DNA of 64,000 nt, from the NCBI GenBank assembly GCA_963845425.1, contig CAWJSC010000005.1, forward strand, positions 238,246-302,245, given 5' to 3'. Below, piece after piece: positions 5,357 to 37,669 of the stretch. Numbering within the stretch: the first letter of the stretch is position 1; each line of letters begins with the position of its first letter. This DNA is from an uncultured Microthrixaceae bacterium (GTDB lineage Bacteria; Actinomycetota; Acidimicrobiia; Acidimicrobiales; DATDAH01). Both the position numbers and the translations under genes were made by a program. The notes under the pieces were generated by a model that was not told where the DNA came from, searched no databases, and was given only the letters and a program-made list of their open reading frames with translations.

Positions 5357-5410
5357 CCTGAAATTGCGCCGATTTGTCACGCCAGGCGTGACAAATCGGC
5401 GCAATTTGGC
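5357..5410. repeat. 54-nt palindromic element, variant B (perfect 23-bp arms)
   Basis: cctgAAATTGCGCCGATTTGTCACGCC-a-GGCGTGACAAATCGGCGCAATTTggc. The arms are exact reverse complements separated by 1 nt. It lies between the convergent thiolase and nfu-like genes. Confidence 0.9.
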
Positions 5411-5473
5411 TGGACGGTGGCTGAGGACTCGCCCTCGGCCGCCTACGTGCGTCGGTTTCGGTAGGACTCAGCC

Positions 5474-6139
5474 TTAGACGTAGGGATTTTCGCCGGCGGC
5501 GTGGTCGGTGACATCCACGATCTCGGTGATCTCGGGGATGTTGTCCCGGAGGGCCACCTCGATGCCGTTGCGCAGGGTCTGGGCGGCCATGCCGCAACCC
5601 TGGCAGCCCCCGCTGAGGCGGAGGGACACGACGCCGTCGTCGGTGACCGAGACCAGCTCGGCCCGGCCGCCGTGGCCGGCCACTGCCGGGTTGATCTGGC
5701 GGTCCAGCACGGTGCGCACCCGCTCGGCCACGGTCCCGGTCAGCTCGCCGAGGTCCTGGGCCATCTCAGGGCTCACCGCGCCCGAAGGCGGCCGGTTCGG
5801 GTTGTCGAGGACCATCCCCGGGTTGAGCAGGTCGCGGCTGACGTCCAGGGTCGCGCCCTCCAGGAAGTCGCGGCTGCCATCGGGGACGATGACGGTCAGG
5901 TCCTCGGCGACGAGCACCAGGTCATCGGGATCGGCGTGCTCGGGAGCCTGGAAGTAGAGGTCGTAGACGAATTCGGTGGTGTCGGCCCCGACCACCTCGA
6001 CCCAGAGGGCCAGGCCGTCGGGCTGGGGCTCGTCGGCCCGCAGGGTCAGGACCCGCTTGCGGGCCTTGTCGGTGACGGTGAAGGAGTCGCTCACTGCCGC
6101 CCAGGATACGGACGGTCGGTGCCGGTGGTTCGGTGACAT
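5474..6139 (-). CDS. NfuA-like Fe-S cluster assembly protein (IscA/HesB-like N-domain + NifU-like C-domain)
   Basis: C-terminal NifU motif LRLSGGCQGCG. The N-terminal half resembles HesB/IscA-type scaffolds. The start is taken at the MSPNH Met; an upstream Met at 6199 is possible. Confidence 0.7.
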   Translation of the reverse strand: MSPNHRHRPSVSWAAVSDSFTVTDKARKRVLTLRADEPQPDGLALWVEVVGADTTEFVYDLYFQAPEHADPDDLVLVAEDLTVIVPDGSRDFLEGATLDVSRDLLNPGMVLDNPNRPPSGAVSPEMAQDLGELTGTVAERVRTVLDRQINPAVAGHGGRAELVSVTDDGVVSLRLSGGCQGCGMAAQTLRNGIEVALRDNIPEITEIVDVTDHAAGENPYV

Positions 6140-6204
6140 CGGATCGTCATCGGGGATGTTGAGGAAATCGATGGGAAAACGGCATGTGACAGCAATCACA
6201 AGCG

Positions 6205-6414
6205 TGAATGTTGCGGTTGAGTTACGAACGCGGTGATCCTGTTGTCACCCCACCAAGAGAAGCGCCTTCTGGCTGACCCCGATTCGAGGGTCATCCGGTC
6301 AACGGCCGCTCGAGCCGCTGCCCCGACGGGCCGGCCGGTGATCCCCTCACCTCCGAGCTCCGCCGCGCGCCCACAGACCGGTGGGGGTCGTCCCCCGAAG
6401 GAGCACACCCCCCT
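6205..6414 (+). promoter_or_regulatory. Structured 5' leader of the rpf gene; possible ydaO-type (c-di-AMP) riboswitch, unverified
   Basis: About 200-nt untranslated leader with two GGTGATCC...TCACC hairpins (6232-6249, 6337-6351). CGCGGUGAUCC and CCCGAUUCGA...GGUCAAC segments loosely resemble ydaO conserved blocks. A GAAGGAG RBS lies at 6397-6403. Confidence 0.25.
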
Positions 6415-7170
6415 GTGCGAGCAATGAACAAGAAGATCGGACTGACGGCCATCGGCCTGACGCTCGTTCTGAGTCTCATCGGTGCGATCGATGGCGGCGC
6501 GGCGTTCGCGACCGACAGCGAGGACACCACCCCGTCGACAGTGCCCGCCACCACGGTGGCTCCGGCCCCGACGACGAGCGAGGTGCCGCCGACCACGGCC
6601 GCGCCCGCACCCTCGACGGCGGAGGAGGCGGCAACCACGACCACCGTGGTGCCCGCCGACACCACCACCACGGAGGTCGAGCCCAAACGTCGCTGGGGCC
6701 CCGATCCCCGCTGGGTCGACTACGGCAACTGTGGCGCCGGTTACACCGCCTGCCACGTGGCCAAGCGCCACCAGGCCCAGGGCCGCTTCCAGTGGCGAGA
6801 CGGTTACTGGTTCCGCTGGGGCGAGACCTGGGTCCGCGGCCACCGCGGCGAGACCTGGGCCGCCTTCCGTGAGGAGGCCCGCCAGGTGCGCCTGTACCTG
6901 TACTACCTGGCCGTGGCCCGGCACCGTCGGGCCCTGGTGAGTCGTTGGTCCGGCGTGGCCAACTGCGAGTCCGGCGGGAACTGGGCGATCGCCTCCGGCA
7001 ACGGGTACTACGGCGGCCTCCAGTTCAACATGGGCACCTGGGAGGCCTACGGCGGCCAGGGCATGCCCCACCAGCGTCCGGCCTGGTACCAGGCGACCAT
7101 CGCCGACCGCGTCCGTACCCAGGGTCAGGGCCTCGGCGCCTGGCCGCGCTGCGGTGCCTACTACGGCTGA
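6415..7170 (+). CDS. rpf: Resuscitation-promoting factor (Rpf) family secreted transglycosylase-like protein
   Basis: Signal-peptide-like N-terminus (KKIGLTAIGLTLVLSLIGA), Thr/Pro-rich linker, C-terminal Rpf motif WSGVANCESGGNWAIASGNGYYGGLQFNMGTW. Confidence 0.85.
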   Translation: MRAMNKKIGLTAIGLTLVLSLIGAIDGGAAFATDSEDTTPSTVPATTVAPAPTTSEVPPTTAAPAPSTAEEAATTTTVVPADTTTTEVEPKRRWGPDPRWVDYGNCGAGYTACHVAKRHQAQGRFQWRDGYWFRWGETWVRGHRGETWAAFREEARQVRLYLYYLAVARHRRALVSRWSGVANCESGGNWAIASGNGYYGGLQFNMGTWEAYGGQGMPHQRPAWYQATIADRVRTQGQGLGAWPRCGAYYG

Positions 7171-7193
7171 TCCGTACGTCAGCCCAAGCTGTC

Positions 7194-7239
7194 GGAAGCC
7201 CGTCCCCCAACGATGTGGGACGGGCTTCCGCCGTTTTCG
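7194..7239. terminator. Rho-independent terminator between convergent rpf and enoyl-CoA hydratase genes
   Basis: 13-bp perfect stem GGAAGCCCGTCCC / GGGACGGGCTTCC with a 10-nt loop, followed by GCCGTTTTCG. Confidence 0.7.
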
Positions 7240-7252
7240 ACCGACATCGGAT

Positions 7253-8017
7253 TCAGTCGAAGGTGCCGTGGCGGCCTTCGCCGGAGGCGAAGCGCCGGGC
7301 GCCCTCCCGGGTCTCGCCACTGGCGATGACGGTGAGGCCCAGTTCGGTCTCCCGGAGGAGGGCGGCGTCGACGTCGAGGGACCACTGGTCATAGGAGGAC
7401 TCCCGGTCCGAGCGCAGGCAGTGCTGGGGGAAGCGGGCGATGTCCTCGGCCAGCGCGATGGCCGCGGTCAACGCCCCGCCGGGCTCGACCAGCCGGTTGG
7501 CCAGGCCCATGCGGAGGGCCTCCTCGCCGGAGACACCCCTCCCCGTGAGGATGAGGTCGAGGGCGTGGCTGTGGCCGATCAGGCGGGGGAGGCGGATGGT
7601 GCCGCCGTCGACCAGGGGCACGCCCCAGCGGCGGCAGTACACGCCGAAGACGGCATCGGTCGCGGCCACCCGCAGGTCACACCAGACCGCCAGCTCCAGG
7701 CCACCGGCCACCGCGGAGCCCTCGACCGCGGCGATGACGGGCTTGTCCAGCAGCATCCGGGTCGGGCCCATGGGACCGTCGCCCTCGATGGTCACCCGAC
7801 TGCCTCGCCCGTCGGCCACGCCCTTCAGGTCGGCTCCCGCACAGAAGGTGTTGCCCTCCCCGGTCAGGACGGCGACGGCGAGGTCGTCGTCGGCCTCGAA
7901 GCGGCGGAACGCCTCGGCCAGGTGCCCCGCCGTCGGCCCGTCGACGGCGTTGCGCACCTCCGGCCGGTTGATGGTGACGATGGCCACCGGTCCCTCGGTC
8001 TCATAGCGCACGGTCAT
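7253..8017 (-). CDS. Enoyl-CoA hydratase/isomerase (crotonase) family protein
   Basis: 254 aa. IVTINRPEVRNAV, FCAGADLKG oxyanion motif, AAVEGSAVAGGLELA. Confidence 0.85.
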   Translation of the reverse strand: MTVRYETEGPVAIVTINRPEVRNAVDGPTAGHLAEAFRRFEADDDLAVAVLTGEGNTFCAGADLKGVADGRGSRVTIEGDGPMGPTRMLLDKPVIAAVEGSAVAGGLELAVWCDLRVAATDAVFGVYCRRWGVPLVDGGTIRLPRLIGHSHALDLILTGRGVSGEEALRMGLANRLVEPGGALTAAIALAEDIARFPQHCLRSDRESSYDQWSLDVDAALLRETELGLTVIASGETREGARRFASGEGRHGTFD

Positions 8018-8039
8018 GCCCGGAGAGTAGAAGTGTCCC

Positions 8040-8255
8040 GTGCTGCCGGACGGGGTCTATGACGTGTTCGTGGTCGACGCCGACGAGGAGGACGGGATCA
8101 TCCGCCTGGAGCTGACGATCCTGGCGGGGGACCAGAAGGGCGAGGTCGTCAACCTCGCGTCGCCCGACCTGCCGGGCGAGCCGGCCCTGCTCCTCGGTAC
8201 CCCCGGCACCCTGACCGTCACCGACGCCGTCCCCGCCCTCCGCCTCGAGCCCTGA
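8040..8255 (+). CDS. Small hypothetical protein (71 aa)
   Basis: GTG-initiated ORF with acidic, coding-like composition. No family recognised. Confidence 0.4.
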   Translation: MLPDGVYDVFVVDADEEDGIIRLELTILAGDQKGEVVNLASPDLPGEPALLLGTPGTLTVTDAVPALRLEP

Positions 8256-8375
8256 CCCCGCCGTTCCTGCAGGACCTCCAACGATGCAACGAATGGGGCG
8301 TCGGGACGGCCTGCCACCCGTCGGGGGCGAGCCAGGCCTTCCGACGCCGTGAATGTCACCCGCAGTGACCGGACC

Positions 8376-8429
8376 TCGTTCTGGCGCCTGATTCGGGCGC
8401 CATGACACCACAATCAGGCGCCAGAACGA
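8376..8429. repeat. 54-nt palindromic element, variant A (GTTCTGGCGCC arms)
   Basis: TCGTTCTGGCGCCTGATT-18 nt-AATCAGGCGCCAGAACGA, with perfect 18-bp arms. It lies between convergent genes. Confidence 0.9.
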
Positions 8430-8552
8430 CAGGGTGGGGTGACGAACTGCGGTTTGGCCACGGTGGGTGGGGATCGCGCTCGAACGGCGCCGCCGAGGCA
8501 GGCGCGAAGAGCCCGGCTCCCGTGGTTGCTGTCGGTTTCCCGCCCGGCGACG

Positions 8553-9179
8553 TCAGACGGGCTTGACCGCGTGGCCGCGGACCGTGACGCGGACGAAGGG
8601 GGGCGACTTGCGCATGGACTCGCGGCGCGCCTCGACCAGTTCGAAGCCGGCGGCGGGGATGGCCTGGTCGGTGGTGCGGGTCAGGTGGCAGTTGCCGGCC
8701 CAGCGCTTCCAGAGGGGCTCGATGCGGCGTTGCCACTTGTGGCGCTTTGGGTTCTCGTAGGCGGCCACGTGCTCCAGGAAGACGAGGCGGCCGCCGGGGC
8801 GCAGGACCCGGTGGATCTCCACCAGCGCGGCTTCGTGATCGGGGACCGAGCACAGGACGAGGGTCGACACGACGGCGTCGAAGCTCTCGTCGGCATGGGG
8901 GAGAGCGTCTACCCCGGCCTCGGCCAGCTCGACGGGGAACGACGCCGACCGGGCCGCCACCTTCGGCTCGAGCTTGGCCCGCATGTGGCGGTCCGGCTCG
9001 GCGAGCACGAGGCGGGTGACGGTGTCCGGGTAGTGCGCCAGGTTGAGCCCGGTCCCGGCGCCGATCTCCAACACCTCGCCCGACAGCCCGCCCAGCAGGT
9101 CGGCCCGCCAGTCCCGGAGGCCGGCGGCCTCGGTCTCGGCCATCGTGCGGTCGTACCAGGCAGCCATGAGTCGGGGCAC
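8553..9179 (-). CDS. Class I SAM-dependent methyltransferase (small-molecule type)
   Basis: Motif I VLEIGAGTG, acidic loop LAEPD, motif RPGGRLVFLEH. No DNA-methyltransferase motifs. Confidence 0.85.
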   Translation of the reverse strand: MPRLMAAWYDRTMAETEAAGLRDWRADLLGGLSGEVLEIGAGTGLNLAHYPDTVTRLVLAEPDRHMRAKLEPKVAARSASFPVELAEAGVDALPHADESFDAVVSTLVLCSVPDHEAALVEIHRVLRPGGRLVFLEHVAAYENPKRHKWQRRIEPLWKRWAGNCHLTRTTDQAIPAAGFELVEARRESMRKSPPFVRVTVRGHAVKPV

Positions 9180-9202
9180 GCCCGGACTGTAGGGCCGAAA
9201 CC

Positions 9203-9899
9203 ATGCCTCGGCGGCGGGGAGTGGTGGGCGAGACTGGCGCGGTGGCGCACCCGTACTGGCCGTTGTTCGACCTCCGGGTGCGCACGCCCCGCCTCGAGCT
9301 GCGGCCGCCGACCGACGAGGACCTGCTGGCCGTCGTCGACCTCGTCCGCCGCGGGGTCCACGAGCCGGACATGATGCCGTTCTCCACGCCGTGGACCGAT
9401 GCGCCGTCGCCCGACCTGGAGCGCAACACCCTCCAGTGGAACTGGCGCCAGCGGGTCGAGTTCACCCCGGAGAGCTGGGCCCTCGGCCTCATCGTGGTCG
9501 TCGACGAGCCGGAGCCCACGATCGTCGGGGTGCAGGACCTGTTCGCCAAGAACTTCGTGGCGACCCGGGTGGCTGAGAGCGGATCGTGGCTCGGTCTGGC
9601 CCACCAGGGAAGGGGCATCGGCAAGGAGATGCGGGCCGCGATCCTGCACCTCGCCTTCGCCGGCCTCGGCGCTGCGTGGTGTGAGACCTTTGCCTGGGAG
9701 GACAACGCTTCGTCCCTCGGGGTCACCGAGCGCCTCGGCTACGAGCCCAACGGTGTGGAGATGGACCTGCGCCGGGGCGAGGGCCGGCCGCTGCGCCGCT
9801 TCCGCATGACCCGGGAGGCCTGGGACGGCCCAGCGGCGCAGGGACATCCGCATCGAGGGCCTGGAGCACTGCCTCGACCTGTTCGGGCTCCCCCAGGCG
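9203..9899 (+). CDS. GNAT family N-acetyltransferase (RimJ/RimL-like); 3' end unresolved, probable frame break near 9812-9840
   Basis: LELRPPTDEDL, GLAHQGRGIGKEMRAAILHLAF and SSLGVTERLGYEPNG are GNAT-like. After MTREAWDG the annotated frame becomes Arg/Pro/Gly shadow. Frame 0 reads RRDIRIEGLEHCLDLFGL and runs without a stop into the next gene. Confidence 0.6.
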
Positions 9900-10598
9900 G
9901 TGGCCGGGGCCGACGCGTGCCGGGGCGGATGGTGCGTGGTCACCCTGCCCGTCGAGGGCGACGCCACCGTGGAGGTCATCGACCGCTTCACCAAGGTCGC
10001 CGCCCGCCAGGCCAAGGGCCGGCTGGGCGCCGTCGGCGTCGACATCCCCATCGGCCTGTCCGACGGCCCGCCCCGCAAGTGCGACGTCGACGCCCGGGCC
10101 CTGCTCGGTGACCGGCGGTCTTCGGTGTTCCCCGCGCCGCTCCGCCCGGTGTTGGGTGCCCGGAGCTACGAGGCGGCGCTGGCCCGCTCCCGGGAGGCCA
10201 GCGGCGTCGGCCTGTCCAAGCAGGCCTGGAACCTCGTGCCGAAGGTCACCGAGGTGGACCGCCTGCTCGACCCGACCCGCCAGGGCCGCATCTTCGAGTG
10301 CCACCCCGAGGCCGCCTTCGCCGCCCTCCACGGTGTCCCGATGGCCCATCCCAAGAAGGGCCGGCCCGGGCGGGACGAGCGCCTGATGGTCCTCCGTCCC
10401 CACGTGCCGGGGATCGACGCCCTCGTGGCCCAGCCGCCCTCGGGCGCCGCGGCCGACGACGTCCTCGACGCCGCGGTCGTCGCCGTCACGGCCAAGGCCA
10501 TGCTCGCCGGCAAGGTCCGTCGCCTCGGCGAGCGCCGCCACGACGCCGAGGGCCTCGTCATGGAGATCGTCATCCCCGAGCCCGGCTACACCCCCTGA
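9900..10598 (+). CDS. DUF429 domain protein (predicted RNase H-like fold)
   Basis: N-terminus VAGADACRGGWCVV and DIPIGL...CD..AR..LG are typical DUF429 features. GTG start. Confidence 0.65.
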   Translation: MAGADACRGGWCVVTLPVEGDATVEVIDRFTKVAARQAKGRLGAVGVDIPIGLSDGPPRKCDVDARALLGDRRSSVFPAPLRPVLGARSYEAALARSREASGVGLSKQAWNLVPKVTEVDRLLDPTRQGRIFECHPEAAFAALHGVPMAHPKKGRPGRDERLMVLRPHVPGIDALVAQPPSGAAADDVLDAAVVAVTAKAMLAGKVRRLGERRHDAEGLVMEIVIPEPGYTP

Positions 10599-10602
10599 GT
10601 CC

Positions 10603-10656
10603 CCCTTCTGGCGCCGCTTTCGGCGGCCAGGACGACCGAAACGGGCGCCAGAACCG
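10603..10656. repeat. 54-nt palindromic element, variant A (degenerate)
   Basis: cccTTCTGGCGCCgcTTTCG-14 nt-CGAAAcgGGCGCCAGAAccg. It starts 5 nt after the DUF429 stop and lies upstream of the WS/DGAT gene. Confidence 0.8.
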
Positions 10657-10766
10657 CGGTGACCGGACCTCGCCGGGGCGAGAGGCGTCACCTGGTGGTA
10701 CCGCTTGAGGGTCACGGGCCCGGAAGTCGTCGTACGATCGGGGCGACATCGACTTGGGGGTGGCGC

Positions 10767-12398: not shown

Positions 12399-12522
12399 GG
12401 CCAAAGTCGGCCCCCTGGGCGGCGCCGGCGTGGGTTGTCCGACTGCTCAGCTCCTAGGACGCTGTTGAAGAATCCGGGTGGCGGTGCTCGCGTTCTGGGC
12501 CGGGGCGCGGGACAATTCGGGG

Positions 12523-13823
12523 ATGCAGGGCAAGAGCGACCCGAACGCTGAGTTGCTGGACGCGGGGGCGTTGTGCCGCCATCTGGTCCCGGACGACTCG
12601 GTGCATGCGTTCCTGGCTGACCACCGTCGGGATCTGTTCCCTGACGAGTTGTTCGCCGACTTGTTCTCGTCGGGGCGGGGCCGGCCGTCGGTGCCGGCTG
12701 ATGTGGTCGCGACAGTGATGGTGCTGCAGTCGTTGGAGGGGCTGTCGGACCGTGACGCGGCTTCGGCGTTGCGGACCAACATCGCCTGGAAGGTCGCCGC
12801 TGGGTTGGCGCTCGACGACGACGGCATCCACTACTCGGTGCTCACCTATTGGCGGTCACGCCTGCGTGATTCCGACGCGCCGGAACGGGTCTTTGACGCG
12901 GTGCGGGCGGTGATCGACGCCACCGGTGTCCTCAAAGGTCGCCGGCGTCGGGCGTTGGACTCGACCCGTTGGACGACGCGTCGCGACCCAGGACACCGTC
13001 AGCCAGGCCAAGTCTGGTCGGGCCGATGCCCTCGCCATCATCGCCGCGCTCGAGGGCCAGGCCCGCCAAGCCGCGCGGCTTCACTCAACGAGCCCGACGC
13101 GTGTTGACCCGGAGTCGCGACACATGCACAAGTCCCGGTCGGTCTACCGCGACGGCTACAAGGCCCACATCGCCGTCGAGCCCGAGACGGGGTTGATCAC
13201 CGCCACCGCGTTGACCCCGGCCAATGCCGGGGACGGCCCCACCGGCATCGAGCTCCTGGCCGGCGAGGGGCCGGGTCTGCAGGTCCTGGCCGACTCCGCC
13301 TACGGGTCCGGCCAGGTTCGCACCTCACTTGACCAGGCCGGCCACACCGCTGCGATCAAAGCGATCCCTCAGCACCGCAACCCCAAGCTCGGGGTCGACC
13401 AGTTCACCCGCGACGACTTCGTCGTCGACCACGACCGCCGGCACGGTGAGGTGTCCCGGCGGCCACACCGTCACGGTCACCGCCGCCAACAACGCCGTGT
13501 TCGGGACCCGCTGCCGGGGATGCCCGCTGCGCTCACGATGCACCACCGCCGTCGATGGCCGCACCCTGCACCTCCACCCCCACGACGCCGAGCTCGTCGC
13601 CGCCCGACACGCCTGGGCCAACGGCGACTTCGCGGATGACTACCGCCAATGGCGGCCATGGTCGAACGCTCCATCGCCTGGCTCGTCGCCCGCAAACCGC
13701 CGGACAACGGCACCTGGACCCTCGCCTGAGGCGGGCCGCGAAGGCTGTCAAAGGGAACGGCTCATTTGGCACAGGGCCACCGCGCGACCGGCTTTCACCC
13801 TCAACACCGGCCTTCGGTCGGAC
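12523..13823 (+). mobile_element. IS1182-family transposase remnant (multiple frameshifts, internal deletion)
   Basis: N-terminal LFPDELFADLFSSGRGRPSVPADVVATVMVLQSLEGLSDRDA. DDE-region GYKAHIAVEPETGLITA...LQVLADSAYGSG in a second frame. CPGGHTVT...CRGCPLRSRCTT...YRQWRP in a third. Shorter than an intact IS1182 transposase. Confidence 0.75.
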
Positions 13824-14240
13824 CTAGTGGGCCAGGGCGGCCCGCAACGTGGCGGCCACCTCGTCCGCGTGGGCGTCGTCGGTGTACTTGTGGCGGGGCC
13901 AGAAGAAGCCCTTGAGCCCGTCCTTGCGGTTGCGGGGGACGACGTGCACGTGGAGGTGGGGGACGCTCTGGCTGACCTTGTTGTTCAGGGCCACGAAGGA
14001 CCCGGCGGAACCCAGCGCCGTCTCCATCACCGAGGACAGGTGCCGGGCCTGCCTGAACAGCGGCTCGACCAGCTCGTCGGGCAGATCGGCCAGCGTCTCC
14101 ACATGGACCTTCGGCATCAGCAGCACATGCCCCGGGAACAACGGCGTCCGGTCGAGGAAGGCCAGCGTGTGCTCGTCCTCGCAGACGACCCGCGCCGGAA
14201 GCGCCCCGCCCACGATCCCACAGAAGACGCAGTTCGCCAC
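13824..14240 (-). CDS. HIT (histidine triad) family protein
   Basis: 138 aa. CVFCGI N-terminus and the triad HLHVHVVP. Confidence 0.85.
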   Translation of the reverse strand: MANCVFCGIVGGALPARVVCEDEHTLAFLDRTPLFPGHVLLMPKVHVETLADLPDELVEPLFRQARHLSSVMETALGSAGSFVALNNKVSQSVPHLHVHVVPRNRKDGLKGFFWPRHKYTDDAHADEVAATLRAALAH

Positions 14241-14340
14241 GGCCCGTCAAGCTAGGCGCCCCCGGGCCTTCACCGGAGAGCCCCTTGTGCCTGTCGGCGG
14301 CCTACCGCCTCGGCCGGTCGGGGTGCGTACGGTTGGCGGG

Positions 14341-15084: not shown

Positions 15085-15096
15085 CCCGTCGCCGAC

Positions 15097-15150
15097 CTGT
15101 TCTGGTCATCCTCCTCTGTTGTGGGGGACAGAGGGGAGCAACCAGAACGG
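15097..15150. repeat. 54-nt palindromic element, variant A2 (GTTCTGGT arms)
   Basis: ctGTTCTGGTcatcctcctctgt-tgtgggg-gacagaggggagcaACCAGAACgg. A long imperfect hairpin fills the lutA-lutB spacer. Confidence 0.8.
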
Positions 15151-15163
15151 GAAAGGGGCGGGG

Positions 15164-17198: not shown

Positions 17199-17235
17199 AC
17201 GGTCGTCGGCCGGGGTCGTCGTAGCCTCGGGGCTG

Positions 17236-17910: not shown

Positions 17911-17938
17911 CTCTCCCGAGCGGTGGAGGCCGACGACG

Positions 17939-19069: not shown

Positions 19070-19163
19070 TGGTCCCGGGCAGACTCGGGGTCGGCTCGCG
19101 CTCCGGCCTCACGGGCGCCATGAAGGGTCTCCCGCAGGGAGGCCACGTGCACCGGAGGCCACC

Positions 19164-20045: not shown

Positions 20046-20050
20046 GCGGC

Positions 20051-24048: not shown

Positions 24049-24076
24049 CGCCCGTTCGGGCCGGCCGCGCGGGAGC

Positions 24077-25546: not shown

Positions 25547-25703
25547 CGGTGGTCGCGCACCGGCGGGCTGTCCGGGCGGGTGGGGCTCAGGAGTCGGTGA
25601 ACTCGACCGAGGCGATCAGGGGGTCAATCGTCGCCGTCCCCGGCGTCGTCGACGGGGCCGATGAGGCGGCGGTGCGGCTGCCGGCCGGGCACCGGTCCCA
25701 CGC

Positions 25704-26459: not shown

Positions 26460-26478
26460 GCCCGACCCCTCCGACCCA

Positions 26479-26532
26479 TCCGAAATTGCGTCGATTTGTC
26501 ACGCTGAGCGTGACAAATCAGCGCCAGAACGC
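26479..26532. repeat. 54-nt palindromic element, B/A chimera
   Basis: tccgAAATTGCGTCGATTTGTCACGC-tga-GCGTGACAAATCAGCGCCAGAACgc. The left arm is variant-B-like and the right arm ends in the variant-A terminus GCGCCAGAAC. Confidence 0.85.
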
Positions 26533-26544
26533 CGGCGGTCGCCA

Positions 26545-27475
26545 TCACTTGACCAGGGTCGGGGCGACGGGGCTGCCGGCGCCCCGGGTGAAGGGGAGGG
26601 GGGTGGCGGTGAGGAGGCCGTCGTACTGGCCGTCGGCCGCGCAGTCCTCGGCCAGGTCGTCCAGGAACCAGAGCTGGCCCTGCAGCAGCCCCATGTCCCG
26701 CAGGTGCAGCAGGTGTACCGGCAGCAGGACGGCGGGGTCCTCGCACGGGAAGCACTCGAACACCAGCGTGTCGGTGGCCACGGCGGCCACGTCGTGGTCC
26801 CGCAGCCACTCGACGGACTGGGTCGACAGCCCCGGGCTGGGGTTGGCGAACCGCAGCTTGTCGCCCTGGGCGAGGAAGGCCATCTGGCCGGTGCGGACCA
26901 TGAGGACGTCGCCGGGCTGCACGTCGATGACGCCGAGGGCGGCGGCCTCGTCCAGGTCGTCGCCGGTGATGGGGTGGCCGTCGTCGAAGCGTGTCGACGC
27001 CGAGGGCGCGGGCCACGTCCAGCAGGACGCCCCGGCTGACCAGCGGCCCGACGGTGTCGATGCCGAGGCGGTGGCAGCCCGCCTCGTCGACCTCGGCGAA
27101 GGGGACGTCGTTGTAGTACCGCTCCTCGTAGCCGGCGTGGGCCAGGGAGTCCCAGTGGGTGGCGGCCTGGATGCCCATGCTCACCCGGTCGTCGGTGGCG
27201 CAGAAGTCGGCGGTGTCGCCGGTGTAGGACTGGTTGACGGCGATCATCGTGCGCTCGGGGTTGTCCCGGCCGGGGATCATCCCGGTCTGGGGGCCGTCCT
27301 CGTCGAAGGGGATGGCCAGGCTGAAGGCCTTCCCCTGCTTGGCGGCGGCCACCCCCCGCAGGACGGCGGCCTGGTCGATCAGGTTGAGCGTGCCCCGCTG
27401 GTCGTCCTCACCCCAGCGTCCCCAGTTGGAGACACGGGCGGCCAGGTCCTTGAGGTGCGGCGGCAGTGCCATCAC
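26545..27475 (-). pseudogene. Putative cyclase family protein (kynurenine-formamidase-like fold) with one frame break (about 26990)
   Basis: N-terminal frame SNWGRWGEDDQRGTLN...ATHWDSLAH...VSRGVLLDVARALGVDTL. C-terminal frame QPGDVLMVRTGQ...DHDVAAVATD...LPVHLLHLRDMG. Confidence 0.65.
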
Positions 27476-27538
27476 CCCAGCCTCGCGCGCCGGTGGTCGC
27501 CGCCGGACACCGGCGGGCCCGGCACCTACCGTGACGCC

Positions 27539-28480
27539 ATGAGCGAGACACCGGAGGGCTTCGACGCCCTCGACTTCGGGATGACCTTCGCCGGGCCCCT
27601 GTCCTTCGCCCGGCTGCCCACCCGGGCCGAGCCCGGGACGCCGAGATCGCCGTGGTCGGGGTCCCGTTCGACCTCGGCACCACCAACCGGTCGGGGACCC
27701 GCCTGGGCCCGCGGGCGATCCGGGAGGAGTCGAGCCTGGCGGGGGAGTTCCCCGAGGGGCTGTGGCCCTGGGACCACGACGTGCGGGAGCGCTTCCGCAT
27801 CGTGGACCTCGGCGACATCGGCTTCTCGATCCCGTCGGTCGACTCGATGCTCAGCCAGGTCACGGCGCGGGCGTCGGCGCTGGCGGCGGCGGGCATCTCG
27901 GTCCTCGGCCTGGGCGGCGACCACCTCGTGGCCTACCCGCTCCTGCGGGCCCAGGCCGAGCACCACGGGCCGCTGTCGCTGGTCCACCTCGACGCCCACT
28001 CCGACACGTGGCCCGATGACGGCAACGTCAACCACGGCTCCATGTTCCGGCGGGCGGCCGACGAGGGACTGGTGGACCCGGCCCGGTCGGTCCAGATCGG
28101 GATGCGGACCCCCAACGAGACCTACGGCTTCAACGTGATCCACGCCGACGAGCTGTTCTCGCTCGGCGTCGACGCCGTGGTCGCCCGATGCCACGAGATC
28201 GTCGGCGATCGGCCCACGTACCTCACCGTCGACATCGACTTCCTCGACCCCGCCTACGCCCCGGGGACGGGCACCCCCGTCATCGGCGGGCCGACCACCT
28301 GGGAGGCCCGGCGACTGCTGCTCGGCTTGGACGGCCTCGACATCGTCGCCGCCGACCTGGTCGAGGTCGCCCCGCCCTACGACCACAGCGGCGATCACGG
28401 CCCTGGCCGGGGCCACGCTCGCCATCGACGAGCTCCACCTGCTGGGTGCCGCCCGCACGGCTCGGGCCGCCCGGGGCTGA
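27539..28480 (+). pseudogene. Agmatinase/arginase (ureohydrolase) family protein with two frame breaks (about 27636 and about 28392)
   Basis: DAEIAVVGVPFDLGTTNRSGTRLGPRAIR, GGDH, HLDAHSD, TVDIDFLDPAYAPGTGTP. The N-terminus (MSETPEGFDAL...) and C-terminus (ITALAGATLAIDELHLLG) lie in other frames. Confidence 0.7.
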
Positions 28481-28526
28481 CGGCGGCCGTTCGTCCCCGG
28501 CGGTCCGGCGCGAGCATGATGCGGCG

Positions 28527-29213
28527 ATGGACACCATGGCCGGCGTGGAGCTCGACCCCGACGATCCCGCCACCCGACTGGCGGACGAGCTGCGGGGCGC
28601 CATCGAGGAGCTGAGCTCGGTGGCCCATGACCCCGAGCGGGTGGCCCAGGCCATCGAGATGGCCGCCGAGCTGCGGACGTTCCTCGACGGCCCCCGGGCG
28701 CCCCGCTGGTACGAGGCCGGTGCGGTGGCCGGCGTGCTCGACGAACAGAGCGGCACGGCCTTCCAGAAGCAGAGCCTGTTCCGGGGCGCCCACAACCCGC
28801 TGGCCCCGCCGATGGCGATGGACGTCGTCGAGGACGAGGACGGCCGCCGCATCGAGTCGAGGGTCACCCTCGGCCTGGCCTACGAGGGGCCGCCCCACGG
28901 CGTCCACGGCGGCTACGTGGCGGGGATGTTCGACGACGTGCTCGGCGCCACCCAGCGGCTGATGGAGAAGCCGGGGGTGACCGGGCGCCTGACCGTCCAC
29001 TACCGCCACATCACCCCCATCGAGGAGGAGCTGACGCTGCGGGCCTGGGTGACCGAGGACGAGGGCCGCCGCATCGTGGCCAAGGCCACCTGCCACGCCG
29101 GTGACCTGCTCACCGCCGAGGCCGAGGCCCTCTTCATCCGGGTCGACTTCACCGAGGTCATGGACCGCATGGCCGCAAGGCGCGACCCGACATCCGACCG
29201 TTCTGGCGCCTGA
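28527..29213 (+). CDS. PaaI-family hot-dog thioesterase
   Basis: GPPHGVHGGYVAGMFDDVLG and TGRLTVHYRHITP are hot-dog thioesterase features. The last residues (SGA) and the TGA stop lie inside the palindromic element. Confidence 0.7.
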   Translation: MDTMAGVELDPDDPATRLADELRGAIEELSSVAHDPERVAQAIEMAAELRTFLDGPRAPRWYEAGAVAGVLDEQSGTAFQKQSLFRGAHNPLAPPMAMDVVEDEDGRRIESRVTLGLAYEGPPHGVHGGYVAGMFDDVLGATQRLMEKPGVTGRLTVHYRHITPIEEELTLRAWVTEDEGRRIVAKATCHAGDLLTAEAEALFIRVDFTEVMDRMAARRDPTSDRSGA

Positions 29214-29977
29214 TCTTCCGGCCATGTCCGGCGAATCGGGCGCCAGTACGGCGGTGTACGCTCGGCGGCAGGTGTCAGGGGTGAGCAGCGCAGGCCTTCG
29301 GCGGCGGTGCGGGCGGCGGTGGTGGCCGCCGCGGTGGCGTTCCGGGCGAGCTCGGCCAGGCCGGGGACCTTGTCGGGGTGGCGCAGCACGTAGCGGAGGG
29401 CGGCGCCGACCTTGGGGGAGCCGTCGGGGTTGACCATGGTGAGGGTGGCGGTGTCGACGGTGTCGTCGTCGGCCCGGTCGCTGATGGCCCGGACCGCCGA
29501 CCACGGCACGCCCCGCTCCTGGCAGACGACGGCGACGGCGACGGTCTCCATGTCGACGGCCACGACCCCCGAGTCGATGAAGGTCGCCAGCGTGTCGGGC
29601 GGGTAGCCGTACTCGTCGGAGGACACGATCTCACCCGCCGGATCCAGGTCGCCGAGCGGTGCCGGCGCGAAGCCCCGTCGCTCCGGGAAGTCGCTGACGA
29701 CGCTGGGGATCACGAGGTCCCCGATGGCGACCGACGGTCCGATGCCCCCGGCGATGCCGACGACCACGACGTGGTCGACCTCGGCCCGGTCGAGCATCTG
29801 CCCGACGGCCTCGGTGGCCAGGTCGATGCCGATACCGGTGGTCGTGGCCACGACGTCGGCACCGCCCACCGTGCCGACGTGGCCCTCGAGGTCACCCGAT
29901 CGCCCCTTCGTCAGCCCGAAGGCCTTGACCACCGGCCGCAACTCCGAAGGCATCGGCGCCAGGATCCCGAACCTCAT
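29000..29977 (-). CDS. Nucleoside phosphorylase family protein (MTA/SAH nucleosidase-like); 3' end doubtful
   Basis: MRFGILAPMPSELRP, GIGIDLAT, VVVVGIAGG, VAVDMETVAVA and AVRAISD match the PNP_UDP_1 pattern. The ORF reads on through the palindromic element and 213 nt antisense into the thioesterase gene, so the true stop is probably near 29250-29280. Confidence 0.6.
   Translation of the reverse strand: MRFGILAPMPSELRPVVKAFGLTKGRSGDLEGHVGTVGGADVVATTTGIGIDLATEAVGQMLDRAEVDHVVVVGIAGGIGPSVAIGDLVIPSVVSDFPERRGFAPAPLGDLDPAGEIVSSDEYGYPPDTLATFIDSGVVAVDMETVAVAVVCQERGVPWSAVRAISDRADDDTVDTATLTMVNPDGSPKVGAALRYVLRHPDKVPGLAELARNATAAATTAARTAAEGLRCSPLTPAAERTPPYWRPIRRTWPEDQAPERSDVGSRLAAMRSMTSVKSTRMKRASASAVSRSPAWQVALATMRRPSSSVTQARSVSSSSMGVMWR
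29198..29251. repeat. 54-nt palindromic element, variant A
   Basis: cCGTTCTGGCGCCTGATcttccggccatgtccggcgaATCGGGCGCCAGTACGg. It contains the thioesterase stop codon (29211-29213). Confidence 0.85.
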
Positions 29978-30061
29978 CAGCCCCGTCGCGTCCCGTCCAC
30001 GGGTCCACGGTAGGCGTCGGAGTGTTGCGCGATTCTGCCGGAGGCCCGCCGAGCGGCGAGA

Positions 30062-32225: not shown

Positions 32226-32346
32226 CCGGGCGGCGGGTCCGCCGTCGCGGGGGACTCGTCCCGGCGTTTCCGGCTCCGTCGTCGGCCGGAACGCCGCGGC
32301 GGTGGTCGACGTCGTGGAGGGTCGCTCGGCGGCGAGGGAGAGGCCG

Positions 32347-33296
32347 ATGACCGACTTTCCGACCGTGCGGGTTGCGGCGGTGCAGGCGACGCCGGTGTTG
32401 CTCGACGCCGAGGCGACGGTCGACAAGGCCGTCGGGCTGATCGACGAAGGCCGGCTGCCGACGGCGCCCGGCTGGCCGTGCTGCCGGAGTGCTTCGTGTC
32501 GGCGTACCCGTCGGGGGCGTGGGGGGCGGCCGCGGCGCACTTCGGTGGGGCCGACGAGCTGTGGGAGCGGATGTGGGCGTCCTCGGTCGACGTCGGCGGC
32601 CCACACGTCCAGCGTCTGGTCGATGCCTGTCGCCGCAACGACGTGCACCTCGTCATCGGCGTCAACGAGCGGGAGGACGTCCGCCCGGGCTCGCTCTACA
32701 ACACGATGCTGCTCCTCGGCCCGGACGGCGTGCTGCTGCGACACCGCAAGACGATGCCCACGATGCACGAGCGGGTGTTCCACGGCATCGGCGCCGGCGA
32801 CGACCTGCGGGTGGTGGACGTCCCTGGAGTCGGCCGGGTCGGCGGGCTGATCTGCTGGGAGAACCGCATGCCGCTCGCCCGCTGGGCGCTCTACCAGGGT
32901 GGCCCGCAGATCTGGGTGGCGCCGACGGCCGACGACAGCGACAGCTGGCAGGCGTCGATGCGTCACATCGCCATCGAGGCGGGGGCCTTCGTCATCAGCG
33001 TCCCGCAGTACCTGCCCCGGTCGGCGTTCCCCGACGACTTCCCGGCGGACATCGGCGAGGCCGACTGCCTCGGCCGTGGTGGGGCGGTCGTCATCGACCC
33101 GATGGGCACGGTGATCGGCGGGCCGCTGTACGACGAGGAGGGGATGGTGGTCGCCGACTGCGACCTCCGGGTCGGCCTGCGGGCCAAGCGGTGGTTCGAC
33201 AGCGTCGGCCACTACTCCCGCCCTGACCTGTTCCCGCCGGCTGCCGCCGACGGGCCCGAGCCGGTCGACTCGCCGGTCGCGCCGCCGGACGTCTGA
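32347..33296 (+). pseudogene. Nitrilase/cyanide-hydratase family carbon-nitrogen hydrolase with one frame break (about 32450)
   Basis: VRVAAVQATPVLLD, LAVLPECFVSAYP (catalytic Glu), RHRKTMPT (Lys), GGLICWENRMPLAR (Cys). Confidence 0.75.
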
Positions 33297-33315
33297 CCGG
33301 CAAGCGAGCCTCAGG

Positions 33316-34053
33316 TCAGAGGTCGTCGACCAGCTTGAAGGCCTCGCCGTGGGCGAACCCGGCCGGCTCGCCCATGGCCGCCGTCTGCTCCGCGCTCCCG
33401 CGCCCGGAAGGCCTCCCGTTCGGAGGCGACCTCGCCGAGGTCCTTGAACATGGTCGTCTCGAACTGGGACTCGTGGCACTCGAGGGCCGCCAGCTTGGGC
33501 TCGACCCAGCCGGTGACGTCCTCGACGTGGTCGGGCTCGTCGGCCTCGAAGAGGAGCAGGGTGGACGGGCCGCCAGGGATCGACATCGTGCTCGGGGAAG
33601 AAGTGGGGGTCCCGGGCGGCGACGATGCCGTCACAGGCGAGGAAGCCGGCGGCACGGTGGTCGGGGTGGATGCGGTAGCGCTTCCAGGGGTCGTGGGCCA
33701 GGACGACATCGGGGCGGAAACGGCGGATCCACCAGGCGACGACACCTCGTCGCTGCCAGGGTGACCTCCAGCTCGCCGTCGACCCAGCCGCAGAAGCCGA
33801 CCTCGCCGGTCGCGCCCAGCGCCCGGGCGGCGGCCCGCTGTTCCTCCTGGCGGAGGGCGACCAGCTCATCGGTGTCCTGCGTCGGGTCCCAGGAGCCTTT
33901 GGACCCGTCGGTGAGGATCAGGTGGTTCACCACGCAACCGGCGGCGGACCACTTGGCGAAGGTGGCGCCGCAGTTGAACTCGACGTCGTCGGGGTGGGCG
34001 GCGATGGCCAGGGCCCGGGCGGGGACCTCGAGGTCGGTCGTGAACTCGGTCAT
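33316..34053 (-). pseudogene. PIG-L/LmbE family deacetylase with three frame breaks (about 33400, 33570, 33768)
   Basis: ALAIAAHPDDVEFNCGAT, LTDGSKG, IRRFRPDVVLAHDP...HPDHRAAG and LLLFEADEPDH...ECHESQF are spread over alternating frames. The corrected C-terminus is MGEPAGFAHGEAFKLVDDL. Confidence 0.65.
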
Positions 34054-34633
34054 CCCGCGGCCAGTAGGGGCGTTGTCGGGATGTCCGGCGGCAGGTCCAG
34101 GTCCGCGGGGACGTCGACGTCCCAGGTCAGGCGGGGAGGACGCTCGACGCTGAGGGCCAGGCCCAGGCGCTCGGCCTCCTTGCAGTGGGCGGCGAAGGAT
34201 CCCGGCCCGTAGGCGAACGTGAACCCCGAGGCGGCGGGGACCGAGGCCACGTTCGTCCCGTCCTCGTGGCGGTCGGGAACGAGCGCGACCCCGTCGACCT
34301 CCGCAGCAGGTCGTCGAAGCCGGTCGCCAGCGGGAGGTCGGCGTGGGTGACCAGCACCCGGTCGACGCCCTCGGCGGCGACGGTGGCCACGGCGTCGTTG
34401 ACCGCTCCGTTCAGGCCGTGACCCGGCCGCCACAGCACCCGGGCATCCCGGGACTCGGCCCAGGCGGCCACGTCGTCGTCGTCGCAGACCACGGCGACAG
34501 GCAGGGGAGCGGCCGCGGTCAGGACCCGGTCGGCCATCTCCCGGGCCAGCGCCGCCCGGGCCGGTCCGTCCAGGACCTCGGCGAGGCGCAGCTTCGCCCG
34601 CCCGAAGGCCTTGACCGGCACGAGGACGAGCAT
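34050..34633 (-). pseudogene. cofC: 2-phospho-L-lactate guanylyltransferase (CofC/FbiD, F420 biosynthesis) with one frame break (about 34293)
   Basis: MLVLVPVKAFGRAKLRL, GLNGAVNDAV, LVTHADLPLAT, then in a second frame GVALVPDRHEDGTN...GPGSFAAH. ATGA overlap with the downstream PIG-L gene. Confidence 0.65.
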
Positions 34634-34757
34634 GAAGGGGCGAGTCTACGAACCGTGGGCGTCAGTCACTGAAGACGTGGATCGTGCCGCGGGTTGCGTC
34701 CGCCCACCCGCTGGTCGTGGGCGCGCACGCTGCGGTGCGCCCGTAGTGTGAGCGGCC

Positions 34758-35753
34758 ATGGACGTCCGAGTGGTGGTTCTCGGCGCCGGGTCGTGGGGGA
34801 CGACGGTCGCCCACCTCGCCGCGCACAACACGCCGACCACGCTGTGGGCCCGACGGCCGGACGTGGCCGAGGAGATCAACGCCCACCACACCAACAGCCG
34901 CTACCTGCCCGACTTCACCCTCCACGAGCGCCTCGAGGCCACCGCCGACCTGGCCGCGGCCGTCGGCCAGGCCGACGTGCTGGTCATGGGCGTGCCCAGC
35001 TCCGGCTTCCGGGAGACCCTCGAGGAGGTGCGCCTGCACCTGCGCCCCTGGGTCCCGGTGGTCAGCCTGGCCAAGGGCCTCGAGCAGGGCACCAAGCTGC
35101 GCATGACCGAGGTCATCAACGAGATGGTCCCCGGCCACCCCTACGGCGTGCTCACCGGCCCCAACCTGGCCAAGGAGATCCTCGCCGGCCACGCGGCCGC
35201 GGCGGTCATCGCCATGTCCGACGTCACCGTGGCGACCCGGCTCCAGGACCTGTTCGCCACCGAGCTCTTCCGGGTCTACACCAACGAGGACGTCGTCGGC
35301 TCCGAGTTGGGCGGGGCCCTGAAGAACGTGATCGCCCTCGCCTCGGGCATGGCCGACGGGCTGGGCGCCGGCGACAACACCCGGGCCGCCGTCATCACCC
35401 GGGGCCTCAACGAGCTCACCCGCCTGGGCGTGGCCATGGGCGGCGAAGCCGAGACCTTCTCCGGCCTCGCCGGGATGGGCGACCTGCTCGCCACCTGCAT
35501 CTCCACCCAGAGCCGCAACCGCCACGTCGGCGAGGAGCTGGGCAAGGGCAAGACCATCGAGCAGATCATCGAGGAGATGGACCAGGTCGCCGAGGGCGTG
35601 AAGTCGGCCAAGGTCGTGTTGGAACTGGCCGAGCAGTACGGCATCGAGATGCCCATCACCGCCGAGGTGGCCAGCGTGTGCGCCGGGGCGGCGCCCGCCG
35701 AGAGCGCCTACCGGGGCCTGCTCAAGCGCTCGGCCGCCTCCGAACGGGGCTGA
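34758..35753 (+). CDS. gpsA: NAD(P)H-dependent glycerol-3-phosphate dehydrogenase
   Basis: [12 protein letters not shown] dinucleotide fold, [39 protein letters not shown]. Confidence 0.9.
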
Positions 35754-35754
35754 G

Positions 35755-37602
35755 GTGACCGATCTCGGGGTCCTCGGCACCGGTCGGCTCGGCGCGGTCG
35801 ACGCCTCGGGCGGGCTGCGGGCTGCCGGGGCCGACTGGTCGCTGGGCTGGTGGATCGGGTCCGAGGACCGCTGGCACGTGCCGCCCGTCGAGGCCGCCGT
35901 GCGCCAGACCCTCGTCGGCCACACCCCCGTGGTCGAGACCCGGGTCCGGGTTGTCAGTGGCGACATCGTGCACCACGCCTTCGCCGCCACCGGCCCGGGC
36001 GGGGCGCCTGCCCTCGTCGTCGAGATCACCAACGAGACGCCGATCCCGGTCGCCATCGGCTTCGTGGTCGACGGCGCGGCGTCGGTCGGCGTGGATGGTG
36101 CGGTGTTGACCGTGGACGGCTACCAGGTCCGCCTGCCCCGCCCGCCGAGCGAGTGGGTGGCGCCCGTCGCCTTCCTGCCGCTGCCCCACAAGGCGACCCT
36201 GCGGGTGGTCGTGGCCCGGGAGGCCCCCGACGCCGATGGCCTGCCCGACGCCGAACAGGTCGCCGCCGGCTGGCGGGCCCAGGGCGACGTCGGCTCCCGG
36301 TGGGTCCTGCCCGAGCCCACCATCGCCGCCGCGGCGGATGCCGCACGCGGTTTTCTGCTCGTGCACGACGGGCCCGACCTGGCCACCACCGCCTGGCTGG
36401 CCGAGGCCCGCCACCAGCTCGGCCTCCGGGCCGAGCAGGGCTTCCGGACCGGCCTCGTGGCCGGCCAGCGCCTGTCGGGCCGGATCCCCGACGTGACCGC
36501 CTCGGAGGCGTCGACCGGCCAGGCTCTCGTCGCCCTCGGTGTCGACCCCGCTCCCGAGCTGGTGGGCCCCGTGGCCAAGGCGGCCCACGCCATCGAGCGT
36601 CGACGTCGGGTCCGCAGGCACCGCAAGGACCCCCAGCGAGCCGGCCTCCTGCCCGGGGGGCCGCAGCCCCCGATCCTCGGCCACGAGGCCCAGACCTACC
36701 TCGACGACTGGTGGTCCGTCGCCGGCCTCGTCCGGGCCGCCCGCCTTCTGGAGGCCGAGGCCCAGCTCGAGGCCTCCGTCGACGCCTGGCGCTTCGCCCG
36801 GGGCCTCGCCGCCGACGTCGACCGCGCCATCACCGTCGTTCTGGCGCCCGATCCTCCGCCCCTGACCGGCGAATCAGGCGCCAGAACGAGCCCGGCGATT
36901 CCCGCGGGGCCGGGGCGGGCGGTGGATGCGGGGATCGTGGGGGTCCTCGTCGGGGCGGGACTGGGGGCGGTCGATCCGGAGGCGCCGGCCGTGGCGGCCA
37001 CCCTGGACCTGATCCGGGATGACCTGACGACGGCGACCGGCGGGGTGACGGCCGGGGTGCTGTCCGACGGGTGGTCGCCGTGGCTGACGGCCCTCCTGGC
37101 CAAGACCGAGATCGGCCTGGGTGACCCCCGCGGCCTCGACCGCCTGCGGGCGCTCGCCACGGTGGCCGCCGGCCGCGGCTCGTGGCCCGAGTTGGTGGGC
37201 GGCGAGCCGGCGATCCCCGTCGACCTGGCCGACCACCACGGGCCGGCCACGGCTGCCTTCCTCCTGGCGGTGCGCTCGTTGCTCGTCGTCGAGCGGGGGC
37301 CGTACCTCCAGCCGCCGGACCGACTGGCCGTTCTTCCCGTCATGGCCCCCGAGTGGTACGGCCAGGGCATCGAGCTCCACGACACGCCCACGGCGTTCGG
37401 TACCTTCGGCTTCGCCGTCCGCTGGCACGGCGACCGCCCGGCGTTGCTGTGGGAGCTGGATCCGTCGCCCACGGCCCCGGCCTTCCGGCTCGAGGCGCCG
37501 GGCCTCGACCCCGCCTGGTCCAGCGCGGACGCCAAGGGTGAGGCCCTCCTCGCCCCCTGCAAGGCCCCCGACGCCGCCGACGTCGAGGTCGACTTCTCGT
37601 GA
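35755..37602 (+). CDS. Hypothetical 615-aa protein, possibly (alpha/alpha)6-barrel glycoside-hydrolase-like, carrying an in-frame palindromic-element insertion
   Basis: Continuous coding-like ORF starting 2 nt after the gpsA stop. Helical-repeat segments (YLDDWWSVAGLVRAARLL, WSPWLTALLAKTE, HHGPATAAFLLAVRSL) suggest a GH15-like barrel. Family assignment is tentative. Confidence 0.5.
   Translation: MTDLGVLGTGRLGAVDASGGLRAAGADWSLGWWIGSEDRWHVPPVEAAVRQTLVGHTPVVETRVRVVSGDIVHHAFAATGPGGAPALVVEITNETPIPVAIGFVVDGAASVGVDGAVLTVDGYQVRLPRPPSEWVAPVAFLPLPHKATLRVVVAREAPDADGLPDAEQVAAGWRAQGDVGSRWVLPEPTIAAAADAARGFLLVHDGPDLATTAWLAEARHQLGLRAEQGFRTGLVAGQRLSGRIPDVTASEASTGQALVALGVDPAPELVGPVAKAAHAIERRRRVRRHRKDPQRAGLLPGGPQPPILGHEAQTYLDDWWSVAGLVRAARLLEAEAQLEASVDAWRFARGLAADVDRAITVVLAPDPPPLTGESGARTSPAIPAGPGRAVDAGIVGVLVGAGLGAVDPEAPAVAATLDLIRDDLTTATGGVTAGVLSDGWSPWLTALLAKTEIGLGDPRGLDRLRALATVAAGRGSWPELVGGEPAIPVDLADHHGPATAAFLLAVRSLLVVERGPYLQPPDRLAVLPVMAPEWYGQGIELHDTPTAFGTFGFAVRWHGDRPALLWELDPSPTAPAFRLEAPGLDPAWSSADAKGEALLAPCKAPDAADVEVDFS
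36836..36889. repeat. 54-nt palindromic element, variant A, inside a CDS (in frame)
   Basis: TCGTTCTGGCGCCCGATcctccgcccctgaccggcgaATCAGGCGCCAGAACGA. It is translated as V-LAPDPPPLTGESGART within the 35755-37602 ORF. Confidence 0.85.
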
Positions 37603-37615
37603 GCGACCCGCGATC

Positions 37616-37669
37616 CCGTTCTGGTACCAGCCCTGTATGCCCCAGTGGACATGGCTGGTACCAGAACGG
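37616..37669. repeat. 54-nt palindromic element, variant A2 (GTTCTGGTACC arms)
   Basis: CCGTTCTGGTACCAGCC-20 nt-GGCTGGTACCAGAACGG, with perfect arms (18 bp including the flanking C/G). An extra partial arm GGCTGGTTCTGGT lies at 37676-37688. Confidence 0.9.

Follow-up and report, generated by a model that had tools for sequence, protein, structure and literature searches.

What are the eight short palindromes that recur in a 64,000-nucleotide stretch of the genome of an uncultured Microthrixaceae bacterium (contig CAWJSC010000005.1, positions 238,246 to 302,245)? A preliminary description of this whole stretch, which we call the window, regarded them as dispersed elements of the repetitive extragenic palindrome (REP), miniature inverted-repeat transposable element (MITE) or Rickettsia palindromic element (RPE) type rather than as ordinary terminators. 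Our analysis supports this view; a REP-like nature fits best, and the MITE type is disfavoured owing to the lack of a target-site duplication. We consider that the eight loci probably belong to a family of palindromic repeats that is dispersed and non-autonomous, occurs in the Microthrixaceae and related Acidimicrobiales, and resembles the REPs of proteobacteria and their hairpin-forming doublets (REPINs) or the 'Tuberculosis Rho-independent terminator' (TRIT) of mycobacteria.

The eight palindromes of the window

Palindromic sequences were found at all eight of the positions given in the preliminary description. They are listed here, together with spans and bit scores from a covariance model (see below) or RNA folding energies for some of them.

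5357..5410, no strand assigned: AAATTGCG variant; model span 5358-5410, 51 bits; -38.4 kcal/mol
8376..8429, no strand assigned: canonical copy, 54 nt; 18-bp perfect outer stem; 71 bits
10603..10656, no strand assigned: 54 nt; begins 4 nt past the stop of a DUF429 gene (9900-10598, + strand)
15097..15150, no strand assigned: 54 nt, GTTCTGGT subfamily; intra-operon spacer that separates a lutA-like gene (CCG domain) from a lutB-like gene
26479..26532, no strand assigned: hybrid of one AAATTGCG arm and one CCAGAAC arm; model span 26480-26532
29198..29251, no strand assigned: 54 nt; TGA at element positions 14-16 is the stop of a thioesterase-like gene (28446-29213, + strand)
36836..36889, + strand: 54 nt; in frame within a conserved 615-aa open reading frame (ORF), 35755-37602; encodes VLAPDPPPLTGESGART
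37616..37669, no strand assigned: 54 nt, GTTCTGGTACC subfamily; 17-bp perfect stem

All eight had been described as exactly 54 nt long, which holds strictly for six; the two AAATTGCG variants (5357-5410 and 26479-26532), in which the 54-nt frame lies off-centre relative to the dyad, align as 53 nt. Likewise, three of the four copies said to share GTTCTGGCGCC(T/C)GAT termini do so (8376, 29198 and 36836), and 10603 reads GCTT/CGTT. Whether four copies have perfect arms, as was also claimed, hinges on where the end of an arm is set: the longest perfect runs of pairs per copy are 23 bp and then 18, 17, 13, 10, 8 and 8 bp. In copy 5357 the perfect palindrome occupies 5361-5407, its 23-bp arms being separated by a single nucleotide. 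A hybrid construction similar to that of copy 26479 is present in L089 (loci in other genomes are cited by such numbers), and AAATTGCG-type elements, which also occur as hybrids, form a rare sub-lineage. Every copy lacks a T-tract, as had been noted, and the flanks are without a T run.

The eight palindromes exceed chance. In the window, which has a G+C content of 72%, GTTCTGGCGCC with at most one mismatch occurs 12 times against 2.7 expected, a count reached by none of 100 shuffles, and GATTTGTCACGC occurs four times against 0.2 expected. RNA folding of each copy gave -25 to -38 kcal/mol (z = -4.5 to -9.4), and DNA folding was similarly good in the two copies computed as DNA. A covariance model trained on 93 family members and run on the window without filters returned exactly the eight; since these belong to the training set, the run shows only the absence of a ninth copy. 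The next match (48541-48590, E = 0.2, 12.8 bits) is a 50-nt hairpin with ends GGCGTTCC...GGGAACGCC, which fills the spacer of two minus-strand genes and may be a decayed family copy or unrelated.

Spread and hairpin anatomy of the family

The claim of a dispersed family could have failed had no further copies existed. A scan with the pattern GTTCTGGCGCC-N(18-46)-GGCGCCAGAAC of a collection holding one genome per species yielded at least 105 further loci. Among the matches listed, the hosts are nearly all Microthrixaceae or other Acidimicrobiales metagenome-assembled genomes (MAGs), and the length, with the gap left free, is exactly 50 nt in 86 of 109, equivalent to 54 nt with the flanking YC...GR. 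The covariance model found ~138 elements in 783 kb of loci among the matches listed; nhmmer and position-weight-matrix scans were less sensitive than this model and were not used for counts. Related to the window are two metagenome contigs reached via a window protein (L001 and L002, ~97-99% identical) and part of CAVPAN010000005.1, which at 97% identity probably derives from the same species. The element occurs in long-read as well as short-read assemblies, from soil and wastewater, and thus is not an assembly artefact. No match was obtained in viral contigs by the pattern scan, in plasmids by blastn or in Rfam at the gathering threshold over the whole window; judged by E-value around one copy, Rfam gave generic hairpin and microRNA matches only.

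Two observations concern the same arms in other settings. In the alphaproteobacterial Caulobacter sp. MAG RYN_462, identical 11-mer arms are central in a different repeat of ~230 nt, which has long inverted outer parts (TCCTCCCCAGG...CCTGGGGAGGA) and at least three copies (L009 4832, L038 2318 and L094 2793). Three marine or sponge-associated Acidimicrobiia genomes carry, at one orthologous locus, a conserved 45-nt hairpin with the family arms followed by CCCTTTTTCG, a canonical terminator-like version (L020 7940-7984, L027 6394-6438 and L058 5542-5586).

The family consensus reads YC-GTTCTGGCGCC-YGATY-(7 variable nt)-(4-nt loop)-(7 variable nt)-RATCR-GGCGCCAGAAC-GR, 54 nt in total, and the palindrome reaches 54 nt and no further. 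When 93 sequences were arranged as a 25-pair hairpin, 86.5% of cells were paired; the corresponding values were 77.4% for shuffles and 33-43% for slid controls. Changes were seen on both sides in 20 of the 25 pairs. The partner positions 14 and 41 vary independently and are mismatched in about one third of copies. The outer arms are conserved across Acidimicrobiales lineages and the inner stems are variable; compensated changes in the outer arms define subfamilies, such as GGTACC and GGCACC/GGTGCC. When each element is oriented according to its neighbouring gene, the transcribed strand shows 43 G·U and 71 A·C mismatches, mirrored positions are alike in composition and there is no orientation bias relative to genes. 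Given the lack of a G·U excess and the mirrored composition, there is no sign of pairing kept specifically in the sense RNA. The symmetry is therefore a property of the DNA, as expected if the hairpin is copied whole or is recognised in the form of single-stranded DNA.

Placement at gene ends and turnover of copies

Context was scored for the 134 elements with enough flank. The codon-usage gene caller was rough, and some genes seem to be split, possibly through errors of long-read assembly, so the coding potential of the flanks was used rather than gene models. Neighbouring genes are convergent in 24 cases, divergent in two and co-directional in 27, and the element sides that point toward a gene 3' end number 107, against 44 toward a 5' end. 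The stop codon usually lies 0-13 nt before the element, and in 17 cases the element's own TGA (positions 14-16) serves as the stop, giving a C-terminus ...RSGA. Frame 3 (GTT CTG GCG ..., translated VLAPD...SGART) is open in 214 of 234 orientation-instances, and the other frames in 156 and 137. Copies within a coding sequence (CDS) are rare: the orthologous copies 36836 and L085:1516, and possibly also L041:2077. Copies have survived almost exclusively at places that can accommodate a strong hairpin without harm: past stops, in convergent gaps, in the spacers of operons and, in frame, in a protein loop that tolerates them.

The same contexts, as first described, are found in the window: after stop codons, between convergent genes, in the lutA-like/lutB-like operon spacer and in frame in a CDS. 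Copy 5357 lies between convergent thiolase (+, stop 5241) and NifU-like (-, stop 5474) genes, and copy 8376 occupies a non-coding spacer with a 71-aa ORF (+) on one side and a methyltransferase gene (-, 8553-9179) on the other. A convergent PNP_UDP_1 gene ends ~23 nt downstream of copy 29198. Copy 15097 is 12 nt past a stop codon and 13 nt before the next start codon, while copy 26479 sits between two minus-strand genes, separated by 12 nt from the stop codon of the cyclase-like gene that precedes it and by 19 nt from the ROK gene that follows. Co-directional genes follow copy 10603 (WS/DGAT) and copy 37616 (adenylate cyclase), the latter copy starting 13 nt past the stop of the 615-aa ORF.

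An RPE-like insertion in frame within a CDS is demonstrated at one locus. Copy 36836-36889 adds 18 aa in frame to the 615-aa protein, and the codon-position G+C signal of the ORF runs on both sides of it. Among orthologues, the same loop may be without a copy (for example L108) or bear a remnant; five orthologues, that of the window included, have one copy there, L111 has two and L112 has about three that are decayed. The frame is kept in all.

The family has multiplied within lineages via dispersal to new sites and local tandem duplication. Tandem pairs and triples have 7-8 nt spacers and a period of 61-62 nt, and the nearest dispersed, non-orthologous copies of one genome differ by 1-4 of 28 inner nt. 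The inner-stem subfamilies are lineage-specific; all 13 copies in Ske_MAG14, for instance, read GAAAC...GTTTC. The dispersed copies of one genome share a lineage-specific inner sequence, which would not be the case for fixed terminators of independent origin. Between species, at least nine sites are common, while presence differs at four or more and copy number at two; thus the copies are not all fixed at orthologous sites, an outcome that would have spoken against a mobile repeat, and some are conserved while others vary in presence or copy number. Remnants with internal deletions are also seen (TTCTGGCG in L087; GTTCTGGCC-TCCGA-GGCCAGGAC in L110).

Two further features of these loci were observed. 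Several genes seem to be split or shortened (window 26545-27475 and others) and single-base indels separate L001 from the window, which suggests residual long-read assembly errors and that MAG gene models need care. A perfect palindrome, CGCTACGCTAC-N-GTAGCGTAGCG, is conserved in a divergent promoter region (L003 ~600-625 and L039 ~6170-6195) and looks like a repressor operator.

Origin of the family and comparison with known systems

If the eight loci are copies of a REP-like repeat, its invariant outer arms of 11 bp and its constant length would be the target of a trans-acting, structure-specific enzyme that acts on single-stranded hairpin DNA, by analogy with the Y1 HUH transposases (REP-associated tyrosine transposases; RAYTs) that handle REPs and REPINs. 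In transcripts, the 25-bp stem would most likely be an mRNA-stabilising 3'-end barrier or a weak two-way attenuator, and the element may be tolerated or co-opted as a 3'-end hairpin.

Several points weigh against this reading. No identical dispersed copies are present in the sample, so that recent bursts of transposition are not demonstrated, and the presence/absence cases are untidy, none of them yielding a clean empty site from which the exact boundaries of an element could be read. Two candidate empty sites were rejected: L048 against L100 shows an untidy 105-nt indel within a divergent spacer, and the difference at the in-CDS locus is 33 nt, not 54. A tblastn search with E. coli RayT gave no real RAYT/Y1 match over 0.94 Mb, which we estimate to be <3% of the genomes concerned; its lone hit was spurious, lying inside a frameshifted gene for an FMN-dependent dehydrogenase. 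The ORFs between close pairs of elements encode GNAT, MarR-GNAT, DUF559-like and other proteins that are not Y1-like in their translations, which were read with no Pfam scan. Furthermore, the termini are neither GTAG nor CGTC, the conservation of the arms is partly a selection effect because the loci were selected by exact outer arms, and the role at the RNA level is one that we infer. For the window itself, the earlier statement that no Y1 transposase gene is present agrees with an empty E. coli RayT tblastn over its whole length and with Pfam on only ~20 of its ORFs, a weak test.

Could the elements be terminators after all? An efficient intrinsic terminator is unlikely because the U-tract is absent and copies lie inside operons. 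Over the first 40 kb of the window, canonical terminators (a hairpin plus a T run) are only as frequent as expected by chance, and the terminator scan overlaps an element only once, at an internal match inside copy 26479. The family shares with canonical intrinsic terminators a GC-rich hairpin straight after the stop codon, but it has no U-tract, its sequence is conserved across loci and copies occur in operons and in a CDS.

A possible, though rather unlikely, alternative is a TRIT-like dedicated terminator or 3'-end motif dependent on a host factor, in which a host protein recognises the conserved, double-stranded GUUCUGGCGCC stem in RNA or the DNA palindrome, and copies are maintained by selection and gene conversion rather than by transposition. 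It would account for the tight coupling to stop codons and the preference for convergent pairs, since a palindrome could serve both directions, and it agrees with the conserved outer arms and variable inner stems across Acidimicrobiales, with the copies kept at orthologous sites between species, with the level of canonical terminators in the window, which is not above chance, and with the TRIT precedent in Mycobacterium, as set out in the TRIT passages of PMC3152330. However, copies lie in the lutA-lutB operon and in a CDS, where termination would be harmful; the sense strand has no G·U excess; and tandem arrays with 0 to ~3 copies at one site resemble repeat dynamics. In addition, mycobacterial RNA polymerase requires a U-tract (PMC3993855), and mapped 3' ends barely overlap TRITs (bioRxiv 10.1101/2022.06.01.494293).

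We regard as doubtful the idea that the arms and the strict length, kept in several Acidimicrobiales lineages while the inner stems turn over, are the footprint of an undescribed trans-acting protein. Such a protein might mobilise the repeat, as an enzyme of a kind other than RAYT, or it might bind double-stranded RNA or DNA in termination or processing, a role once suggested for TRIT. If this were true, the family would represent a new repeat-plus-enzyme system in Actinomycetota, not one more REP family.

It is very unlikely that the elements are MITEs derived from a DDE transposon, with the GTTCTGGCGCC arms as terminal inverted repeats mobilised by the transposase of an insertion sequence (IS) whose ends would be expected to match CGTTCTGGCGCC. 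Inverted repeats at the termini, many dispersed copies and lineage-specific subfamilies would suit such an origin, and the window does contain a DDE insertion sequence; but direct repeats of 2-8 bp are at chance level at six boundary offsets over 122 copies, so that no target-site duplication is seen, the elements are palindromic throughout and not at their ends only, and 54 nt is very short for a MITE. The only transposase seen in the window belongs to this 1366-bp IS5/IS1182-type element (12458-13823; DUF772, DDE_Tnp_1 and DDE_Tnp_1_6), inside which neither the arm motif nor the covariance model finds a match, the IS ends not having been aligned to the element directly. This IS, broken up into three ORFs that overlap, is missing from L002 (99% identical) and has CTAG at both junctions.

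Equally hard to credit is a motif for DNA uptake or for protein binding on the chromosome, along the lines of paired DNA uptake sequences or uptake signal sequences (DUS/USS) or of gyrase or nucleoid-protein sites. The conserved 11-mer, the symmetry at the DNA level and the lack of an RNA signature are in keeping with it. Uptake sequences, however, also occur as singletons, and the 11-mer is hardly ever alone: nine of the 12 near-matches in the window lie in elements, leaving three, in line with the 2.7 expected by chance. That the arms are inverted at a fixed spacing and that the inner stem covaries both indicate a hairpin.

The least probable explanation is that of integron attC-type or other site-specific recombination sites bounding mobile gene cassettes, which could explain why the single element of the window is matched in L001 by a pair of elements enclosing two GNAT genes (920 bp), why an element borders one side of several gene-sized indels between species and why the element ends are GTT...AAC, but the junctions of the L001/window indel fall outside the elements, the remaining indels have an element on one side only, the copies are scattered among housekeeping genes and operons in both gene orientations with no array, the order GTT...AAC is opposite to that of attC (RYYYAAC...GTTRRRY) and no integrase is nearby. 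In that indel, L001 14656-15574 corresponds to window 29252-29273 and holds two extra GNAT acetyltransferase genes and a second element (~920 bp), with breakpoints just outside the elements; the cassette idea drawn from it was dropped after alignment of the junctions and a look at the other indels. GNAT-type genes are flanked on both sides by elements at three unrelated loci (L048 4570-5720 and L074 320-1130, both by translation, and L001 14694-15518), which may be chance, GNATs being common accessory genes.

The repeat family favoured here can be placed among known systems. A literature search for the arm sequence as a repeat found no paper and gave only unrelated primers, and the Microthrixaceae/Acidimicrobiia lineage seems to be without a described family of this kind. 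REPs and REPINs with RAYTs are known from E. coli, Pseudomonas and Stenotrophomonas and form GTAG- and CGTC-tagged superfamilies (PMC3733652, PMC3116915). REPs can supply stop codons and sit in frame in ORFs (PMC3733652); head-to-head REP dimers 1-2 bp apart have already been described, as have CGTC REPs without a dedicated transposase. The present family resembles them in being short and palindromic with many dispersed copies (eight in the 64 kb of the window), in its position at gene 3' ends, a few nucleotides from a stop or supplying it, with rare divergent contexts, and in its occasional in-frame ORF copies, clusters or dimers, species-specific subfamilies and lack of target-site duplication. 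Nevertheless, its termini, YCGTTCTGG...CCAGAACGR, are symmetric and paired, whereas the REP tag is an unpaired GTAG or CGTC, and each element is one near-perfect 25-bp hairpin of fixed length, whereas a REP consists of a 5-13 bp stem and the unpaired tag. The host is also different, being an actinobacterial class, and the 0.94 Mb searched gave no RAYT match; by text search, Actinobacteria are not mentioned in the REP/TnpA-Y1 papers PMC3733652 and PMC6006769, and untagged REP-like sequences in M. tuberculosis were noted by Di Nocera.

TRIT was described by Gardner et al. in 2011 as 147 palindromic copies with a narrow distance to the stop codon and, in the TRIT passages of PMC3152330, is reported as confined to Mycobacterium. 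By these passages, and by description only, the two families share an Actinomycetota host, a sequence-conserved palindrome, a copy number of the order of at least 100, bidirectional capability, a very narrow stop-codon distance that often overlaps the CDS end, the lack of a U-tract and an unproven function. In-frame CDS copies, tandem arrays and lineage-specific subfamilies, as in the present family, do not appear in the TRIT passages of PMC3152330.

RPEs are ~100-150 nt long and many lie in genes; RPE-1 elements are palindromic insertions longer than REPs. The present family is similar in that an in-frame palindromic insertion adds a peptide, its length being a multiple of three with one frame nearly always open, but its in-CDS copies are exceptional.

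As a second actinobacterial family, in a separate class, it offers a comparison for hairpins without a U-tract in high-GC bacteria that lack canonical terminators, with a clear record of gain and loss in its subfamilies, its tandem arrays and the 0/1/2/3 in-frame series in one protein. In the annotation of Microthrixaceae MAGs, the motif marks gene ends and may hold stop codons, and 18-aa VLAPD...SGART inserts can be recognised as repeat-derived; it is also a possible strain-typing marker for wastewater and soil Microthrixaceae. The family opens no new category of element and belongs with the known REP/TRIT-like repeats.

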